Source: Candidatus Magasanikbacteria bacterium RIFOXYC2_FULL_42_28
Lineage (GTDB): Bacteria > Patescibacteriota > Patescibacteriia > Magasanikbacterales > GWA2-37-8
Assembly (NCBI GenBank): GCA_001784435.1
Contig: MFQZ01000003.1
Coordinates: 3,022 to 67,021 of the forward strand
Length of the DNA stretch: 64,000 nt
Reading direction: 5' to 3'
Of the stretch, positions 4,289 through 53,259 are shown one piece after another. Both the position numbers and the translations under genes were made by a program. The notes beneath the pieces are model-generated. The model was given only the letters and a program-made list of their open reading frames with translations. It did no database searches and was not told the origin of the DNA. The first letter of the stretch is position 1. Every line of letters starts with the position of its first letter.

Positions 4289-4507
4289 ATGATTGATACT
4301 ATTTTTAATATCGTCCAGTTGGTTCTGGCGATTTTACTAATCATCGTTATTCTCTTACAACAAAAGGGGGGCGGTTTGGGTGGGGTATTCGGCGGATCTT
4401 CCAATGTGTACAGCACCAAACGGGGCGTGGACAAAATTTTGTATTACGCCACCATTGTTATCGCCATCCTCTTCTTCGCCGGCGCTTTGCTAAAACTGGC
4501 AATTTAA
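4289..4507 (+). CDS. secG: preprotein translocase subunit SecG
   Basis: 72-aa protein with two TM helices and the SecG glycine-rich loop LLQQKGGGLGGVFGGSS. Confidence 0.8.
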   Translation: MIDTIFNIVQLVLAILLIIVILLQQKGGGLGGVFGGSSNVYSTKRGVDKILYYATIVIAILFFAGALLKLAI

Positions 4508-4525
4508 ACGCGCCCGCAATTTAAC

Positions 4526-6478
4526 ATGAACTGGACAAAATTAATCGACCGAGTCAAAACCGCGCTCGCGCGTCGGGGAACAAAAACCGATTTTGACAAA
4601 AAATTGTTCCGCCGTCTGCGACCGCGCGCTATTCCCTCTTGGCCACAATTAAAATATTTAGGCCGATTTTTGCGACCGCTGGAAAAACGTCTGCTCTTTG
4701 GTCTCACCGCTCTCGCCGTCATCGTCACCATGGCCTGGCTGGGAATTTTTGTTATCCGCCACTCCGGTTCCGCGCCTAAAATCGGCGGGGAATACCGCGA
4801 GGCGCTCGTGGGACAACCAAAATATATCAACCCGATTTTTTCCTCCATCAGCGACATTGACTCCGATCTGGTTGCCTTAATTTATTCCGGTTTATTTAAA
4901 TACGACCACAACCAAAAATTAGTAACCGACTTGGCGGAAAAATATACCGCCGGCACGGATTTAAAAACTTACGAAATAACTTTGCGCGCCGGTACTAAAT
5001 GGTCGGACGGAATGCCCATCACAATTAACGACGTTATTTTTACTTTTGAGACAATCCAAAATTTAGAAGTGGGCAGTCCCCTCGCGACCGCTTTTGAAGG
5101 CGTAAAAATTGAAAAAACGGGAGAACGAAGCGTGCGTTTTACTTTAAAAGAACCTTACGTCTATTTCTTAAATAGTTTGACAGTCGGGCTTTTGCCAGAA
5201 CACGTCTGGGCGCAAATTGAACCAGCCGGTCTAAAACTTTCCAAATACAATTTACAACCGGTCGGCTCGGGACAATGGCGCTTTGAAAAAATGACCAAAA
5301 ACGAATCCGGTGAAGTCCAAAATTACACTCTGGTTCCAAGCGTGAATTACTATGGCACGAAACCGTATTTCACGAGTGTGGAATTAAAATTTTTCGTAAA
5401 TTTCCCCGACGCGCTGACGGCTCTAAAAGGCCAACTGGTAGACGGGGTGGCCTTTGTGCCTAATGAACTAAAGGATAAAATTGGCCAACGCAATTATACT
5501 GCTTACCAAATTTTACTACCCCAAATTACCGCTCTGTTTTTCAATCCGGATAAAAAAACCGAATTAAAAGATTCCGATGTGCGCGCGGCGCTCACTTGGG
5601 CCACGCCCCGAGAAAAAATTATCGCGGACGCGCTCGGTGGCAACGCGATTTTGGCCGACTCCCCCCTGCCGACGATATCAGTTGCCCATCGCGCCGGCGT
5701 AAAATATGGTTTTGACCCCAATGAAGCCAATAAAATTTTGGATAAAAAATACAAAAAAATAGAACCGGAAGAATATTTTCGCCTGCGCCATGAAATGGAA
5801 TTAAAAACTTACCAAACCGAAATTGACACCGTGCGCGCCACCAACACCTCCACTCCCGAAATAGTATCAACCACTTTGGAAAAAATAGAAAAAGAAATCG
5901 CGACCAAAGTACGCGCCGAAATGAGCGCCGAACAAACATTCTACCGCGCGAGTGATAATAAAATTCTCCAAATAACAATCGCGGTGGCGGAAAATCCCGA
6001 ATACCTGGCCACGGCCGAAATCATCGCCACGGCTTGGAGAAAAGTTGGTGTCCAAACATCCGTAAAAATTGTTACCACTTATCAAATCAATCGCGAAATA
6101 ATCCGTGACCGCAATTACGACGCTTTAATTTACGGCGAAATCACCGGCGCGGACTACGACCTGTTTCCGTTCTGGCATTCATCCCAAGCCAAATATCCGG
6201 GCTTAAACTTGGCGAACTACAACAATCGCGACGCTGATAAATTACTGGAAACCGCCCGTGCCACCGCGGACGAAACCGAACGAATAAAATTAATTAATAA
6301 ATTCCAAGAAATCGTGGACGTGGGCGCACCGGCCATATTTTTATACACCCCCGCGCACTGGCTCGTCGTTGCCAAAAATATTCAAGGTATAAAAATTAAC
6401 GCCCTGACCAAACCGTCAGATCGCTACGATTATCTGGGGCAGTGGTACACCAAAACAAAGTGGCAATGGAAACCATGA
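4526..6478 (+). CDS. ABC transporter substrate-binding protein, family 5 (oligopeptide/dipeptide/nickel type), with N-terminal membrane anchor
   Basis: 650 aa with an N-terminal TM segment followed by SBP_bac_5-like sequence (KYINPIFSSISDIDSDLVALIYSGLFKYD..., DLFPFWHSSQ, APAIFLYTP). The length and the pattern of conserved motifs fit the OppA/DppA family. Confidence 0.7.
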   Translation: MNWTKLIDRVKTALARRGTKTDFDKKLFRRLRPRAIPSWPQLKYLGRFLRPLEKRLLFGLTALAVIVTMAWLGIFVIRHSGSAPKIGGEYREALVGQPKYINPIFSSISDIDSDLVALIYSGLFKYDHNQKLVTDLAEKYTAGTDLKTYEITLRAGTKWSDGMPITINDVIFTFETIQNLEVGSPLATAFEGVKIEKTGERSVRFTLKEPYVYFLNSLTVGLLPEHVWAQIEPAGLKLSKYNLQPVGSGQWRFEKMTKNESGEVQNYTLVPSVNYYGTKPYFTSVELKFFVNFPDALTALKGQLVDGVAFVPNELKDKIGQRNYTAYQILLPQITALFFNPDKKTELKDSDVRAALTWATPREKIIADALGGNAILADSPLPTISVAHRAGVKYGFDPNEANKILDKKYKKIEPEEYFRLRHEMELKTYQTEIDTVRATNTSTPEIVSTTLEKIEKEIATKVRAEMSAEQTFYRASDNKILQITIAVAENPEYLATAEIIATAWRKVGVQTSVKIVTTYQINREIIRDRNYDALIYGEITGADYDLFPFWHSSQAKYPGLNLANYNNRDADKLLETARATADETERIKLINKFQEIVDVGAPAIFLYTPAHWLVVAKNIQGIKINALTKPSDRYDYLGQWYTKTKWQWKP

Positions 6479-48937: not shown

Positions 48938-50008
48938 CTAACGCCACAACCAACACTCGCTCGCTACCTTTTGCTTTAACTTTCGCGAATTGCCATGACT
49001 GATAAGCCCTAAATACGATTGGACAACAGTATCTTTCGTAGTTAGGCGAATTTTTCGCAACATTCTCTGTTTTGTTTTAGTTCGAATAACACGATGGTCA
49101 AAGAAATTCACCCAACCAAGAAAATCAACACCGGAAGACACGGTTTTTATAAAAACTTTATCCGGATGCAAGGTAAGTTTTAAATTTGATTGTAAAAATT
49201 CTTGTATTTTTGGCATTGCCGCCTCCAACCGAAATTTATCACGCGAAAGAAAAATAAAATCATCGGCATACCGCGCGTAATAATGAGATTTTAGCCGGTG
49301 CTTTACCCATTGATCAAATTTATTTAAATAAATATTGGCGAATAACTGTGAGGTAAGATTGCCGAGAGGTAAGCCGACGCCAGATAATGATTCTGTGTGG
49401 AAACTGTTAATAATATTCTGCAACAGTCGAAGTATATTTTGATCAGGAATATAGCTACGCAATATTGTCAGTAATATTTCGTGATTAATACTCGCAAAAA
49501 ATTTCCTAATATCACATTTCAACACCCAACAAGTACGGTTATGATTTTTACTCACTCGAAACACCAAATTTCTAAAACTATTTACCGCCTTATGCGTCCC
49601 TTTATTATCACGGCAGGAAAAAGATCCGGCAATAAAAGTTTTATCAAAAAATGGATATAAAATCCGATAAACAGCGTGGTGGAGTAGCCGATCGCGCACG
49701 CTTGCCTTATGAATATGCCGTCGTTTGGGATCGTTAATAAAAAAACTTTTATAACCGCCGTGTTGATAAACGCGATTGACTAAATCTTCGTGAAGTTCTA
49801 CAATATTATCCATTAAGCGACTCTCAAACTCCACAACATCAATTTTCTTTTTCTTGTCAATTATAAATTCCTCCCACGCTAAACATAAATTTTCGTGGGA
49901 AATAATATTTTCATAACTATGACTCAATTGAATTTTCCCGCCGACACGGCAATTAAGCCCCCCCCCCCAGCAAAGCCGTACTGAAATTCCCATTTTGACT
50001 GAACTCAA
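48938..50008 (-). CDS. diversity-generating retroelement (DGR) reverse transcriptase
   Basis: RT motifs including YARYADDFIF (YxDD box) and the DGR-specific motif-4 sequence GVGLPLGNLTSQLFANIYLN (I/LGxxxSQ). 356 aa (or 351 from the ATG at 49993; the ORF track uses a TTG start). Adjacent TR/VR pair and Avd gene. Confidence 0.85.
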   Translation of the reverse strand: MSSVKMGISVRLCWGGGLNCRVGGKIQLSHSYENIISHENLCLAWEEFIIDKKKKIDVVEFESRLMDNIVELHEDLVNRVYQHGGYKSFFINDPKRRHIHKASVRDRLLHHAVYRILYPFFDKTFIAGSFSCRDNKGTHKAVNSFRNLVFRVSKNHNRTCWVLKCDIRKFFASINHEILLTILRSYIPDQNILRLLQNIINSFHTESLSGVGLPLGNLTSQLFANIYLNKFDQWVKHRLKSHYYARYADDFIFLSRDKFRLEAAMPKIQEFLQSNLKLTLHPDKVFIKTVSSGVDFLGWVNFFDHRVIRTKTKQRMLRKIRLTTKDTVVQSYLGLISHGNSRKLKQKVASECWLWR

Positions 50009-50330
50009 GATTTGTTATTTGTTGTGGCATAGTTTTTTAATTGATCTCCCGCGTTTGACGCGCTACACGCTCGGCGTAAAAATAGATAATTTATTTACCG
50101 AACTACTGGGGATAACGATTGCCGCGCAATATACCAAACGAACTGATAAATTAGAATTTTTAGAAGAATTGAATAGAAAATTTGATAACTTAAAATATTT
50201 TATCACTATTCTCTGGGAAGCAAAAGGGTTAAGTGCCGGAAAATATGCGCAACTATCTCAAAAACTCACACGCATCGGCCAAATGCTCGGCGGTTGGATT
50301 GCGCTTTTAAAAAGAAACTCTCCCAACTAA
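49995..50330 (+). CDS. Avd-like DGR accessory variability determinant (four-helix-bundle family), encoded on the strand opposite to the RT and TR
   Basis: 111 aa. The C-terminus LTRIGQMLGGWIALLKRN resembles the Bordetella Avd C-terminus (...GRILGSWIARVNRKG). The size and helical character fit the 23S-rRNA-IVS/Avd family. The start overlaps the RT start divergently. Confidence 0.6.
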   Translation: MTELKICYLLWHSFLIDLPRLTRYTLGVKIDNLFTELLGITIAAQYTKRTDKLEFLEELNRKFDNLKYFITILWEAKGLSAGKYAQLSQKLTRIGQMLGGWIALLKRNSPN

Positions 50331-50353
50331 ATTGGGAGAGAACGAGGATATTA

Positions 50354-50471
50354 GCTGAGGAAGCCGAACAGGTAGTTCCGATTCCAGTTGCCCTTGACCG
50401 TGTTGAGGTTCAGGTTGCGCCAGTCGGAATTGCCGTTGAGGTAGAGCACGTTGCCGTCCCGCGCGGAGCCG
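50354..50471 (-). repeat. DGR template repeat (TR), 118 bp, sense strand = minus
   Basis: 118/118 alignable with 50827-50944. All 14 mismatches are at positions where this copy has A on the minus strand. The minus-strand reading is ...GNVLYLNGNSDWRNLNLNTVKGNWNRNYLFGFLS, built on AAC/AAT codons. Confidence 0.8.
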
Positions 50472-50820
50472 CCTACAAATATACAAAATAACTTCTGTAA
50501 CACCGCCCCTTGAATACTCTTGGGGTTGAATCGAATTTGGAAACTTTATTTCCCTACTATTTTGTACCGAGTATCTTCATTTTTAGGGTATACCGGTAGC
50601 ACACTAACTGGCAACATATCGCCAATTATTCCGGCCGATCGGTGTATCCAGAGTTCAACCGCCCAAAGCCGTAGCCGTGGACTGTTTCGTTTACTATCCG
50701 GATATAGTATACCACAAAAAGGAAGAGCGCGCACCGAGAACCGATGCGCGCGCGAGGTGAAACGAAGGGACCGAGCGACCAAGGAACAAACAAAGTTCCA
50801 AGGCACCCAGGATCCCAGCG

Positions 50821-51399
50821 CTACTCGCTGAGGAAGCCGAACAGGAAGCGCCGACGCCAGCGGCCCTTGACCGTGTCGAGGTACAGGCCGCGCCAGTCGG
50901 AATCGCCGTAGAGGTAGAGCACGCTGCCGTCCCGCGCGGAGCCGAGCTCCACGATCGGTGCGTTCCTCTGCTCATCGGGGTGTTGCACCCCGATGGCCAA
51001 GAGGTGCTTGGGCAGGATGGGCGGCTTGGCGTTCTCCTTCCCCCAAGCCAGCATCTCCTCGCGGAACGGATCCCTGTCAAACTGCACCAAGATCACGCTC
51101 GCCGGCTTGGCGAGGCCAACTTCATCATTCGCAAACTGCCGAACGATGTTGTCGTCGGTGCCGTCGTACTTGCCGATCTTGATTGCCTCGGCAACCGACG
51201 ACACCTTGTACGGCTGGAGGACGAGCGTCCTCACAACCGTACCGATGAGCGGCGACGGCGGGGTGAGAGCCGGCCGTGTGACATCTTCCACGACGAGCTT
51301 GCGCTCACCGCGAAAAATGGCGCGGGCTACATCTGCGCCTCCCAACATGTTGAGGAGCGCTTCAGTTTCGCCCCTCCTCCAATCATCATACTTTCCCAT
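50821..51399 (-). CDS. DGR target protein (192 aa, unknown fold) with C-terminal variable region
   Basis: The minus-strand ORF contains the VR in frame. The ATG at 51399 is preceded by a strong SD ggaaggagctcgtcATG; the ORF track's longer 50821..51558 version lacks such a signal. The region is GC-rich (about 60% or more) relative to the rest of the window. Confidence 0.6.
   Translation of the reverse strand: MGKYDDWRRGETEALLNMLGGADVARAIFRGERKLVVEDVTRPALTPPSPLIGTVVRTLVLQPYKVSSVAEAIKIGKYDGTDDNIVRQFANDEVGLAKPASVILVQFDRDPFREEMLAWGKENAKPPILPKHLLAIGVQHPDEQRNAPIVELGSARDGSVLYLYGDSDWRGLYLDTVKGRWRRRFLFGFLSE
50827..50944 (-). repeat. DGR variable repeat (VR) at the 3' end of the target gene
   Basis: Same 118 bp as the TR, but with N at 14 TR-adenine positions. 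It encodes the C-terminal ...GSVLYLYGDSDWRGLYLDTVKGRWRRRFLFGFLSE of the target protein and ends 3 codons before the stop. Confidence 0.8.
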
Positions 51400-51637
51400 G
51401 ACGAGCTCCTTCCGAGTTGAAAACCCGAAAAGTGTTTTGCCTCTGCCCGAGGCCCAGGTCTCTCTCTGCATGAGAAGAGCTTTTGTGCCACTTACAAATA
51501 AATATAGGTAAACCATATTTACTCCTTGGTTCGAAAATGGAACGAAAGCACGGCTCATGATTGTTTAATTTTAACACTAAATCATACCTTAAAATAATGA
51601 TTTTGTCAATGTTTGTGTACCACGACCTCTTCATCAC

Positions 51638-51666
51638 TTGACATATTTTGATATTTAGTGTAAAAT
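51638..51666 (+). promoter_or_regulatory. sigma70-type promoter for the AbiEi/AbiEii operon
   Basis: TTGACA (51638-51643), 17-nt spacer, TAAAAT (51661-51666). Confidence 0.4.
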
Positions 51667-51704
51667 ATATACATAAAGTCATTAAATCTTATGACCTACG
51701 CTAT

Positions 51705-52490
51705 ATGAAACAAACTATACTTTCTGCTAAACAAAGCGAACTGCTCGAAAATCTGATTGGTGAATATGGCTTGATTGTCACTTCTGGTCAGATTATTAAG
51801 ATTGCTAAAAATAACTGGGATTACAAACAAGCCAAAAATCTAATAACAAAACTTGTCAAAGACGGCTGGCTCATCCGTATCAAACGAGGTCTGTATACTA
51901 TTTCCGAATTAACCGGCCGAGGATTTTTGTCGCTCTCATCCTATACGGTGGCCAATCTCTTGGTCAAGGATTCATACGTTTCTTTTGCATCCGCATTGCA
52001 ATATCATAATATGTTTGATCAGCTCATGAAAAAAACTACCTCTGTCAGTTTAAAAATGTACAAAACTACCACACTTAATAACATGGAATATGATTTTGTA
52101 AAAACCAAAAAACAATTATTTTTTGGTTTTGAAGAGATCGTGTTTTATAATAAAACAGTACGAATTGCCACAGCGGAAAAAGCGCTAATTGATATGGTCC
52201 ATTTTCACAAAAGTAAATTGATGATTGATGTGGTGATTGAAAAAATTATTAATCACAAACACGATCTGGATTTTAATCGTTTTAACGAATACCTATCTAA
52301 ATTTTCCGGCACTACCATTAAAATATTTGGCCTTATTTTTGATTTTCTAAATATTGATTCCAGTAAATTATACAAAATTGTGAAACATAAGCGCGGCACT
52401 AACTGGATGTTAGTCGGCGACAAAAAATTCGATGCCAAATGGAGAATATACTATGACGAATTCTTTGATCAATATAATGAAAAAACTTAA
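51705..52490 (+). CDS. type IV toxin-antitoxin system antitoxin AbiEi (wHTH transcriptional regulator)
   Basis: N-terminal AbiEi_4-like wHTH (LSAKQSELLENLIGEYGLIVTSGQIIKIAKNNWDYKQAKNLITKLVKDGWLIRIKRGLYTIS). It immediately precedes an AbiEii gene. The ORF track's 51648 start is a TTG inside the promoter; the ATG at 51705 is preferred. Confidence 0.7.
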   Translation: MKQTILSAKQSELLENLIGEYGLIVTSGQIIKIAKNNWDYKQAKNLITKLVKDGWLIRIKRGLYTISELTGRGFLSLSSYTVANLLVKDSYVSFASALQYHNMFDQLMKKTTSVSLKMYKTTTLNNMEYDFVKTKKQLFFGFEEIVFYNKTVRIATAEKALIDMVHFHKSKLMIDVVIEKIINHKHDLDFNRFNEYLSKFSGTTIKIFGLIFDFLNIDSSKLYKIVKHKRGTNWMLVGDKKFDAKWRIYYDEFFDQYNEKT

Positions 52491-52500
52491 TTTTTAAAAT

Positions 52501-53259
52501 ATGATTACTCGCCAACAATTAGAAATTATTAACCGAAAAACTTTGAAATATCCTTTGCATATTGCGGAAAAAGATTATTTTCTCACATTGGTTCTCCAAA
52601 TTATTACCCAATCCACCCTCCAAGATACTCTTATTTTCAAAGGTGGTACCGCTCTACACCATACCTACTTGGAACAACATCGTTTTTCCGAGGACTTGGA
52701 TTTTTCCGCCAACCAAAAACCGGTAGAATTGGAAGAATTGCGAAATATTTTTAGTGGTATTGACTATTTGAATATTAAAAAAGATTATCTCTCTGGCGCG
52801 ACTGTAAAAATTGAAAAATTGCAATACACCGGCCCTTTAATTCAGCCCAATTCTTTGAAAGTGGAAATAGATTTTTTGCAAAATGTTTTGCTTCCTCCTC
52901 AAACCCTAAAATACAACAACGTCTGGAATATAGATTTTGAGGTAAAGGTAATGAACATCAAGGAAATCTGCGCTGAAAAAATTCGCGCCACGAACGATCG
53001 CGCTCGTTATCGCGATTTTTATGATTTATTTCTTATTTTAGAAAAATATCAACTTGATTTAAACGAAATCGCCAGATATATAAAACAAAAAGAAATTAGA
53101 AAGCCGTTGACAAAAAACAACATAAAAAATAACTGGGCAATGATTGGTGCACAAAAAGAAATTGAAATGAGCCAAATATATTATTCTCGAATGATTGAGG
53201 ATGGGGAGATAATGGCCATGATTGAAACTCTGCCATTTACCAAGATTACAAAAATATAA
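52501..53259 (+). CDS. type IV toxin-antitoxin system toxin AbiEii (DUF1814 nucleotidyltransferase)
   Basis: Hallmark FKGGTALHHTYLEQHRFSEDLDF (GG...S.D.D NTase motif) and C-terminal ICAEKIRATNDRARYRDFYDLFLI. Confidence 0.8.
   Translation: MITRQQLEIINRKTLKYPLHIAEKDYFLTLVLQIITQSTLQDTLIFKGGTALHHTYLEQHRFSEDLDFSANQKPVELEELRNIFSGIDYLNIKKDYLSGATVKIEKLQYTGPLIQPNSLKVEIDFLQNVLLPPQTLKYNNVWNIDFEVKVMNIKEICAEKIRATNDRARYRDFYDLFLILEKYQLDLNEIARYIKQKEIRKPLTKNNIKNNWAMIGAQKEIEMSQIYYSRMIEDGEIMAMIETLPFTKITKI

Follow-up and report, generated by a model that had tools for sequence, protein, structure and literature searches.

Evidence for a complete chromosomal diversity-generating retroelement in Candidatus Magasanikbacteria, with conserved candidate RNA and regulatory features

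The genome of Candidatus Magasanikbacteria bacterium RIFOXYC2_FULL_42_28, a member of the candidate phyla radiation (CPR), very probably carries a real, complete and chromosomal diversity-generating retroelement (DGR) with a layout specific to the CPR. The element lies in a stretch of 64,000 nucleotides (nt) of contig MFQZ01000003.1 (positions 3,022 to 67,021; hereafter the window), and its target protein is identical to a hypothetical protein from that genome. A map of the open reading frames (ORFs) and Pfam searches gave the order target gene with its variable repeat (VR), template repeat (TR), avd and reverse transcriptase (RT) gene, with RT, TR and VR on the minus strand and avd on the plus strand. 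All parts of the complete DGR that had been proposed from the sequence (RT, Avd, TR and an adenine-mutagenised VR in a small target gene; hereafter the original prediction) were found, including Avd, whose placement on the strand opposite to RT, TR and VR had gone unmentioned.

The cassette layout had been thought undescribed. This does not hold, because it equals the published architecture B3, TR-(avd)-RT, which occurs in 90% of CPR DGRs (Wu et al. 2018, NAR 46:11, PMC5758913); at the window locus, too, a TR, a reversed avd and an RT follow each other in a CPR genome. A Patescibacteria-restricted 'DGR clade 2', with targets that usually lack a recognisable domain and probably hold new C-type-lectin variants, was described by Roux et al. 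2021 (PMC8144416), and the supplements of that study gave no match for the window genome. The element is an additional, possibly already catalogued, CPR DGR of the B3 class. Such CPR DGRs were reportedly first surveyed by Paul et al. in 2017 in Nat Microbiol. The element itself is ordinary; what makes it interesting is chiefly a set of conserved candidate regulatory and RNA features brought out by comparison. Four of these, namely the TR transcript with its leader, a G9-12 tract, the 5' untranslated region (5'UTR) of the target and an anomaly in GC content at third codon positions (GC3), were not found described in the literature that we searched.

Adenine-specific differences between template and variable repeat

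Upon realignment, the TR and the VR matched without gaps over 118 nt and differed at 14 positions, and at 14/14 of these the TR base is an A (eight A-to-G, three A-to-T and three A-to-C changes). Twelve of the 26 TR adenines are unchanged, as are all other bases (0/92 changed), and the hypergeometric probability of all 14 mismatches falling on A is 1.9e-11. The changes are confined to codon positions 1 and 2 (14/14) and alter 9/9 AAY codons of the TR, which translates as GGSARDGNVLYLNGNSDWRNLNLNTVKGNWNRNYLFGFLS, as opposed to LGSARDGSVLYLYGDSDWRGLYLDTVKGRWRRRFLFGFLSE for the VR, each up to a stop codon. At some past time, adenine-specific transfer from the TR to the VR took place. The TR is itself non-coding, the sole ORF across it being a mechanical 50-aa frame, and no second VR is present within the 64-kb window.

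The original prediction came close to these results. Its two gapless 118-bp repeats with exactly 14 differences, all at A, reappeared on realignment, the translations of TR and VR were reproduced exactly, and the VR, placed in the last ~40 codons of a minus-strand ORF, forms the last 39 sense codons of the 192-aa target. Its approximate base counts (27 adenines and 91 others) had to be adjusted to 26 and 92, with 14 and none changed, respectively, as before. Mismatches at non-adenine sites, which had been named beforehand as refuting, did not appear.

The homology between the repeats stops after ...CTCAGC, where the TR goes on with TAA (stop) and the VR gene with GAG-TAG. In nearly all related loci, the base after the invariant segment is likewise G (GAG) in the VR and another base, usually T (TAG or TAA stop), in the TR. 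Because the TR stop just after it is never copied into the gene, the 19-nt invariant end appears to be the 3' limit of information transfer from TR to VR. The inverted repeat downstream of the VR folds as DNA at -11.9 kcal/mol (z -2.76), and the same topology was obtained for 7 other loci, each folded singly; the consensus fold of this region (RNAalifold on a MAFFT alignment) is weak. The theoretical repertoire amounts to 3.8e10 variants from the AAY codons alone and to 2e15 when all adenines are counted.

Related loci share the arrangement and the mismatch pattern

Homologues of the target formed seventeen clusters at 90% identity, with 45-65% identity, and a search with the target profile gave 1200 representatives at E<=1e-3. 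For comparison at the DNA level we used the loci L001, L004 (= L002, L003), L005, L006 (= L009, L010), L007, L008, L014, L021 and L026. Every fetched related locus contains the target with its VR, a spacer of 355-427 nt and the TR, and where the contig goes on, an opposite-strand avd comes next, followed by RT (the same order in L001, L005, L007 and L031-L033). Mismatches on A only, 14-18 per locus and with the exception of the base past the shared 3' end, were seen in L001, L004, L005, L006, L007, L008, L014 and L021.

A 97-nt TR pattern, in which each A was replaced by N, had no match in the JGI metagenomes. A shorter family pattern returned from the same metagenomes only other family members and chance matches in Streptomyces and gut contigs. 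In a contig from Hainich groundwater (L016, ~2285-2843), the 'VR' of a family target gene is identical to a TR, with all AAC codons intact, and is followed by a TR-type 3' flank. Two origins are conceivable for this contig: chimeric assembly across the repeat, or VR/TR recombination with loss of the spacer.

The reverse transcriptase and Avd

The RT ORF (48938-50008) is intact and encodes a protein of 328-351 aa that has the motifs LPLGNLTSQ and YADD and is free of any maturase or endonuclease extension. The ORF and YADD are as originally predicted, but the DGR motif reads LGNLTSQ, not IGNLTSQ. The best solved relative of the protein is 8ub7_A (E 1.5e-38), compared with 3.6e-23 at best for a group II intron RT and 7e-6 or worse for a retron. 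We infer that 8ub7_A is the Bordetella phage RT (bRT), from residue numbering that agrees with Handa et al. (bioRxiv 10.1101/2023.10.23.563531); a literature search on the PDB code 8UB7 gave no paper. Among the key bRT residues of that study (K29, F66, R74, I76, D138, I181, G182 and Q187), I181 is replaced by L and all others are kept in the window RT, as is D215/216.

Searching phage genomes with tblastn gave 175 records with 35-38% identity to the window RT across nearly its full length. Known DGR carriers are among them, namely Vibrio phage VP585, ANMV-1 and phages of Bordetella, Bacteroides and Faecalibacterium. More than 8000 RT relatives were found in all; those nearest to the window RT, at 58-78% identity, belong to Magasanikbacteria, Uhrbacteria, Parcubacteria and other Patescibacteria. 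Judged by its motifs, the residue match and the PDB similarity search, the RT is a member of the DGR clade. For Avd, the Pfam family bAvd scored 49.1 bits at a cut-off of 40, with the short form of the protein covering positions 17-105 of the 107 in the profile. No sequence match to Avd was found in the PDB.

The target protein and its N-terminal module

The target starts at ATG 51399, and all homologues begin with MxKY. It is small, without signal peptide, transmembrane segment or recognised domain, it belongs to no Pfam or NCBIfam family, and no relative of it was found in the viral collection. The claim that the target is undescribed stands as far as Pfam and NCBIfam models are concerned, but domain-less CPR targets, probably with new C-type-lectin variants, had already been reported by Roux et al. 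2021 (PMC8144416), and the fold search on the window target points the same way. The AlphaFold2 model, computed from a 17-sequence alignment, has a mean predicted local distance difference test (pLDDT) score of 85.5, with residues 50-192 at ~90 or above and the first ~45 residues modelled as two helices at lower confidence. Foldseek returned nothing significant for this model, the best match being a Bd2740 domain (E 0.15). The variable columns of the family alignment coincide exactly with the TR AAY codons. With moderate confidence, we take the modelled domain to be a divergent C-type-lectin fold.

The N-terminal module of the target (51259-51399, residues 1-47) reads MGKYxDWTxGExEALLNxxGGxDxARAVLRGERKL. 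It is 66% identical to the N-terminus of P0074, the rest of which is unrelated, and at about 66% identity the same module heads several other small proteins with different, VR-like C-termini (P0092, P0141, P0113, P0135 and P0070). In the converse case, the second DGR target of locus L003 (see below) shares 58% identity with the C-terminal domain of P0070 but has a different N-terminus. The module is thus shuffled among variable proteins, and its probable role is to dock the variable domain to a partner that these proteins have in common. The 3460-aa adhesin P0078, with 13 profile matches, was rejected as a repeat artefact.

Table 1. Features of the retroelement and its surroundings (positions in the window)
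Feature	Position	Strand	Description
DGR reverse transcriptase	48938..49993	-	351 aa as annotated; conserved core from near TTG 49927; Pfam RVT_1 5e-27
C11 homopolymer (G11 on RT strand), avd/RT 5' junction	49958..49968	.	Position conserved across loci
avd (accessory variability determinant)	49995..50330	+	111 aa from TTG 49995; Pfam bAvd 8.9e-13
TR 3' flank: TAA, conserved pyrimidine stretch, 9-10-bp stem-loop (50340-50318), U-run (50317-50309)	50309..50353	-	Terminator scan
Template repeat (TR)	50354..50471	-	26 adenines, 9 AAY codons
Conserved structured TR RNA leader, 228 nt	50472..50699	-	Alignment of 11 loci, covariation
Extended -10 promoter element TGgTATACT for TR RNA (putative)	50706..50714	-	TG.TATA(C/A)T conserved in 9 loci
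Target intrinsic terminator, 11-bp stem + T-run	50717..50751 (stem 50751-50727)	-	Terminator scan; position conserved in alignment
Imperfect GC-rich inverted repeat, hairpin- or cruciform-capable, conserved flanks	50767..50816	-	10-13 nt past VR
Target gene, 192 aa: 47-aa N-terminal module + predicted C-type-lectin-like domain	50821..51399	-	GC 63%, GC3 0.77
Variable repeat (VR)	50827..50944	-	Last 39 sense codons of target; 14/14 mismatches at TR adenines
Invariant VR 3' end, 19 nt, CCTGTTCGGCTTCCTCAGC, identical in TR; boundary like the initiation of mutagenic homing (IMH) site	50827..50845	-	TR/VR alignment
Conserved structured target 5'UTR	51400..51497	-	11-locus alignment, RNAalifold
Target promoter (putative), TTGACA-17-TATGAT	51581..51609	-	11/12 matches; TTGACA and -10 box conserved in related loci

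A candidate template RNA with a conserved structured leader

The extended -10 element lies directly 3' of the target terminator and is followed by a very conserved non-coding stretch and then by the TR. In the structure predicted for the TR RNA across 11 distinct loci, pairing reached 94.6%, compared with 38-47% when the partners were slid by 1-3 columns. Compensatory double changes were observed at 22 pairs, compared with 3-10 in the slid controls, and 0/500 shuffles reached the observed values. All covarying helices belong either to the 228-nt leader or to the 3' stem-loop; the TR itself contains none. Neither the leader nor the target 5'UTR nor any other part had a match in Rfam, and the viral collection contained no copy of the leader.

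Because its own -10 element, a conserved leader, the TR and a terminator-like stem-loop with a U-run stand in series, the TR would be made as a discrete RNA of ~390 nt (50699 to 50309). The terminator-like 3' stem-loop also matches the position of the 9-bp 'Avd-binding stem-loop' described for other DGRs by Handa et al. (bioRxiv 10.1101/2023.10.23.563531). Inspection by eye gave no priming duplex of the leader with the TR 3' end (CUAG/CUAA) that was consistent across loci, and the idea was dropped.

A partly similar leader was seen in the Uhrbacteria locus L033 (~4300-4560). Locus L003 contains, at 1559-2568, a second target (163 aa, with another VR type ending in ...FRVLRRKSA), after which the leader occurs once more, this time with a different TR; the same genome also carries a family member. 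At this locus, one RT may serve two template RNAs.

A conserved G/C tract between avd and RT

The 5' ends of avd and RT are separated by a C11 run, which is the sole G/C run of at least 7 nt in the window. A G-run of 9-12 was found at the same site in 9/9 distinct loci that reach it (the window, L001, L005, L006/L010, L007, L008, L009, L014, L021 and L033, with L006 = L009 = L010), including the Uhrbacteria locus L033, whose target differs. No other G/C run of at least 8 nt was present in any fetched locus, and three contigs terminate within or beside the G-run. Among the 120 closest RT clusters, 39 are called far enough upstream to be informative; GG or GGG(G) occurs in 39/39 of them, and GGG or more in 31/39. 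In the called RT ORFs, these stretches precede the ENL motif by 20-28 residues. On the avd strand, the C-run sits between a conserved ATG (49919 in the window) and the Avd core. The long avd frame that starts at this ATG stays in register in four loci (L001, L005, L021 and L033) and is shifted out of register in three (the window, L007 and L014).

One explanation of this arrangement would be that expression of Avd, and possibly of RT, is turned on and off by slipped-strand phase variation or by transcriptional slippage at the tract, so that hypermutation would be gated stochastically. We put this forward tentatively, as an idea with appreciably less than even chances of being correct. Such a switch would read OFF in the window consensus, which may explain the unchanged VR described below, and the 228-nt 5' leader in place of a 3' spacer, together with a 5'UTR that masks the Shine-Dalgarno sequence, may fit the same picture of gating. 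Alternatively, the tract may be the spacer of overlapping divergent promoters, or the differences in length may be noise in assembled run lengths. Moreover, Avd may be made regardless of tract length by way of the shorter form from TTG 49995, because this form still covers most of the Pfam profile. A literature search for links between DGRs and homopolymer tracts or phase variation found nothing relevant.

Expression signals, base composition and neighbourhood of the target gene

The ~90 nt that precede the target start codon are conserved in 11 loci, and the structured 5'UTR comprises three hairpins with 16 pairs, 5 of which show compensatory changes (RNAalifold, 11 loci). The last hairpin (~51432-51408) pairs with part of the Shine-Dalgarno sequence GGAAGGAG (51413-51406), and the 5'UTR may therefore be a translational control element that sequesters the ribosome-binding site. 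The GC3 of the target gene is 0.72-0.92 in ten DGR-linked loci, compared with 0.33-0.46 for RT, avd, RNR, ruvB and abiEii. The only homologue without an adjacent DGR (P0017, in L028/L029; L028 920-1507) has a GC3 of 0.43, and downstream of it come a terminator and an FtsH-like gene.

Between the DGR target and ruvB lies an AbiEi antitoxin/AbiEii nucleotidyltransferase toxin pair (51648-53259, plus strand, GC 29-36%). In the syntenic locus L025 this pair is missing and the target adjoins ruvB directly, so the pair is not part of the DGR.

Alternative explanations and present activity

The two 118-nt copies might be ordinary diverged duplicates with a coincidental adenine bias. Apart from the existence of a repeat, nothing speaks for this, and we consider it refuted by the repeat statistics together with the mismatch pattern of the related loci, with a negligible probability left to it: chance accounts poorly for 14/14 mismatches on A (P = 1.9e-11), the changes avoid the third codon position and alter every AAY codon, the same pattern arose independently in 8 other loci, and a DGR-type RT and Avd adjoin the repeats. 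It is similarly hard to believe, and in our estimate vanishingly improbable, that the RT belongs to a group II intron, a retron, a DRT or an Abi-type system (with the AbiE pair) that merely adjoins the repeats. The top NCBIfam match of the RT is indeed a group II intron RT/maturase, at 157 bits for a cut-off of 300 bits and with no DGR-RT family among the matches, and the AbiEi/AbiEii genes lie 250 nt from the target gene. However, among solved relatives the Bordetella DGR RT comes first, with an E-value better by 15 orders of magnitude, the protein carries the LGNLTSQ signature and lacks a maturase or endonuclease extension, the Rfam scan showed no intron RNA, retron or other RNA family, and the AbiE pair is absent from the syntenic L025.

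A further question is whether the DGR is now silent or decaying, such that the TR/VR differences record past homing only. The original prediction that the target surface is 'being hypervariabilised in this population' went too far, since the differences prove past homing and the VR is identical in three strain assemblies: the window, ENA ERZ27254852 and Logan SRR3989339, all from the same strain, show 100% identity across a stretch of 6.1-6.4 kb that contains the VR. One noisy cluster member departs at one VR site. Likewise, the homologue P0013 has one VR across 9-11 contigs from at least 3 assemblies. Both identities speak for a silent or decaying element, and that of the three strain assemblies also counts against the reading of the locus as a complete DGR, as do several further observations. 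ATG 49919 is in frame with Avd only at a run length of 10 or 13, and the assembled 11 breaks the long frame; the usual RT start ATG (MKIQL.H; 49925-49940 in the window) is replaced by GGG in the window and L005 and is missing in L033; the NCBIfam family DivGenRetAVD matched Avd with an E of 1.5e-17, but at 63.8 bits for a cut-off of 80; and the transcript ends, priming site and leader function proposed for the TR RNA derive from sequence only. As the conserved ATG is lost, the RT would have to start either three codons downstream, at a TTG, or before the G-run, at an ATG.

On the other side, no catalytic or DGR-signature residue is missing from the intact RT ORF, the core of Avd is intact too, and a reversible switch in its OFF state would show just such an out-of-frame tract. 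Consensus assemblies hide minor variants and may stem from one data set, so we count the VR identity as neutral rather than negative. With zero non-adenine differences over 118 nt, TR and VR have not drifted apart since they last underwent homing, which argues that this event was recent on an evolutionary scale. Altogether, we regard a silent or decaying element as possible, though rather unlikely, and retain the reading of a complete DGR.

Proposed mechanism and comparison with known systems

For a complete DGR with these parts, we propose the following working model. The TR would be transcribed from its own extended -10 promoter as an RNA of ~390 nt, made up of the 228-nt structured leader, the 118-nt TR and a 45-nt tail that ends in a 9-10-bp stem-loop and a U-run. 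Once bound to this RNA, RT and Avd would make a cDNA of the TR with misincorporation opposite adenines, and the cDNA would replace the VR. The segment CCTGTTCGGCTTCCTCAGC would set the 3' limit, so that the TR stop codon is never transferred, and the conserved inverted repeat downstream of the VR would probably assist. The nine AAY codons could thereby yield ~4e10 variants (up to 2e15 with all adenines) of a surface on the predicted divergent C-type-lectin-like domain.

Compared with CPR DGRs of the B3 architecture or clade 2, nothing class-defining differs: order and orientation, the cellular groundwater CPR host, the small domain-less target and RT relatives that are almost all from Patescibacteria are the same. 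The Bordetella phage BPP-1 DGR (mtd-avd-TR-brt) shares with the window locus the adenine-specific TR-to-VR transfer, Avd, an RT with (I/L)GxxxSQ and YxDD and the conserved bRT residues, as well as a VR at the C-terminus of a C-type-lectin-fold protein (the fold being predicted here) and an invariant, IMH-like 3' end with an inverted repeat behind it, which in the Bordetella prototype also stands after the VR (PMC5758913). In BPP-1, however, avd lies upstream of the TR on the same strand, whereas it is downstream and antisense in the window. The essential BPP-1 RNA includes 20 nt of avd upstream and a 140-nt spacer downstream of the TR (bioRxiv 10.1101/2023.10.23.563531); in the window only ~45 nt come after the TR, and the long conserved structured RNA is upstream of it. 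Furthermore, BPP-1 is a phage with a tail-fibre-tip target, unlike the chromosomal locus with its free-standing 192-aa target studied here.

The nanoarchaeal AvpA (PMC5006420), one of the small stand-alone variable proteins of 'dark matter' DGRs, and TvpA of T. denticola (PDB 2y3c) resemble the predicted target in being a single small globular C-type-lectin-like domain with variable residues near the C-terminus. They have no detectable sequence similarity to it, AvpA has 46 residues after the VR whereas the VR of the window target is at the very C-terminus, and the window target has an extra 47-aa N-terminal helical module, which it shares with unrelated variable proteins.

In contingency loci, poly-G/C tracts occur in genes and divergent promoters of Neisseria, Haemophilus and Campylobacter. 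The window tract is similar in that a 9-12-nt G/C run occupies a fixed 5' coding or promoter site of a divergent gene pair, and in that its length varies between related loci, with the frame on in some and off in others. It differs in that it would control a mutagenesis machine and not a surface antigen, in that the length variation was seen between loci only, and in that, on the RT side, two of the three frames retain an ATG upstream.

As one more well-resolved DGR of the CPR class, the element is of modest value. The covarying 5' leader is a candidate for template-RNA assembly or priming in CPR DGRs without a Bordetella-type 3' spacer, and the conserved, length-variable G/C tract is a candidate ON/OFF switch for diversification. 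The 5'UTR that masks the ribosome-binding site is, in turn, a candidate for regulation of target translation. Finally, a common docking partner of the 47-aa module could reveal the role of these small, cytoplasmic-looking binders.

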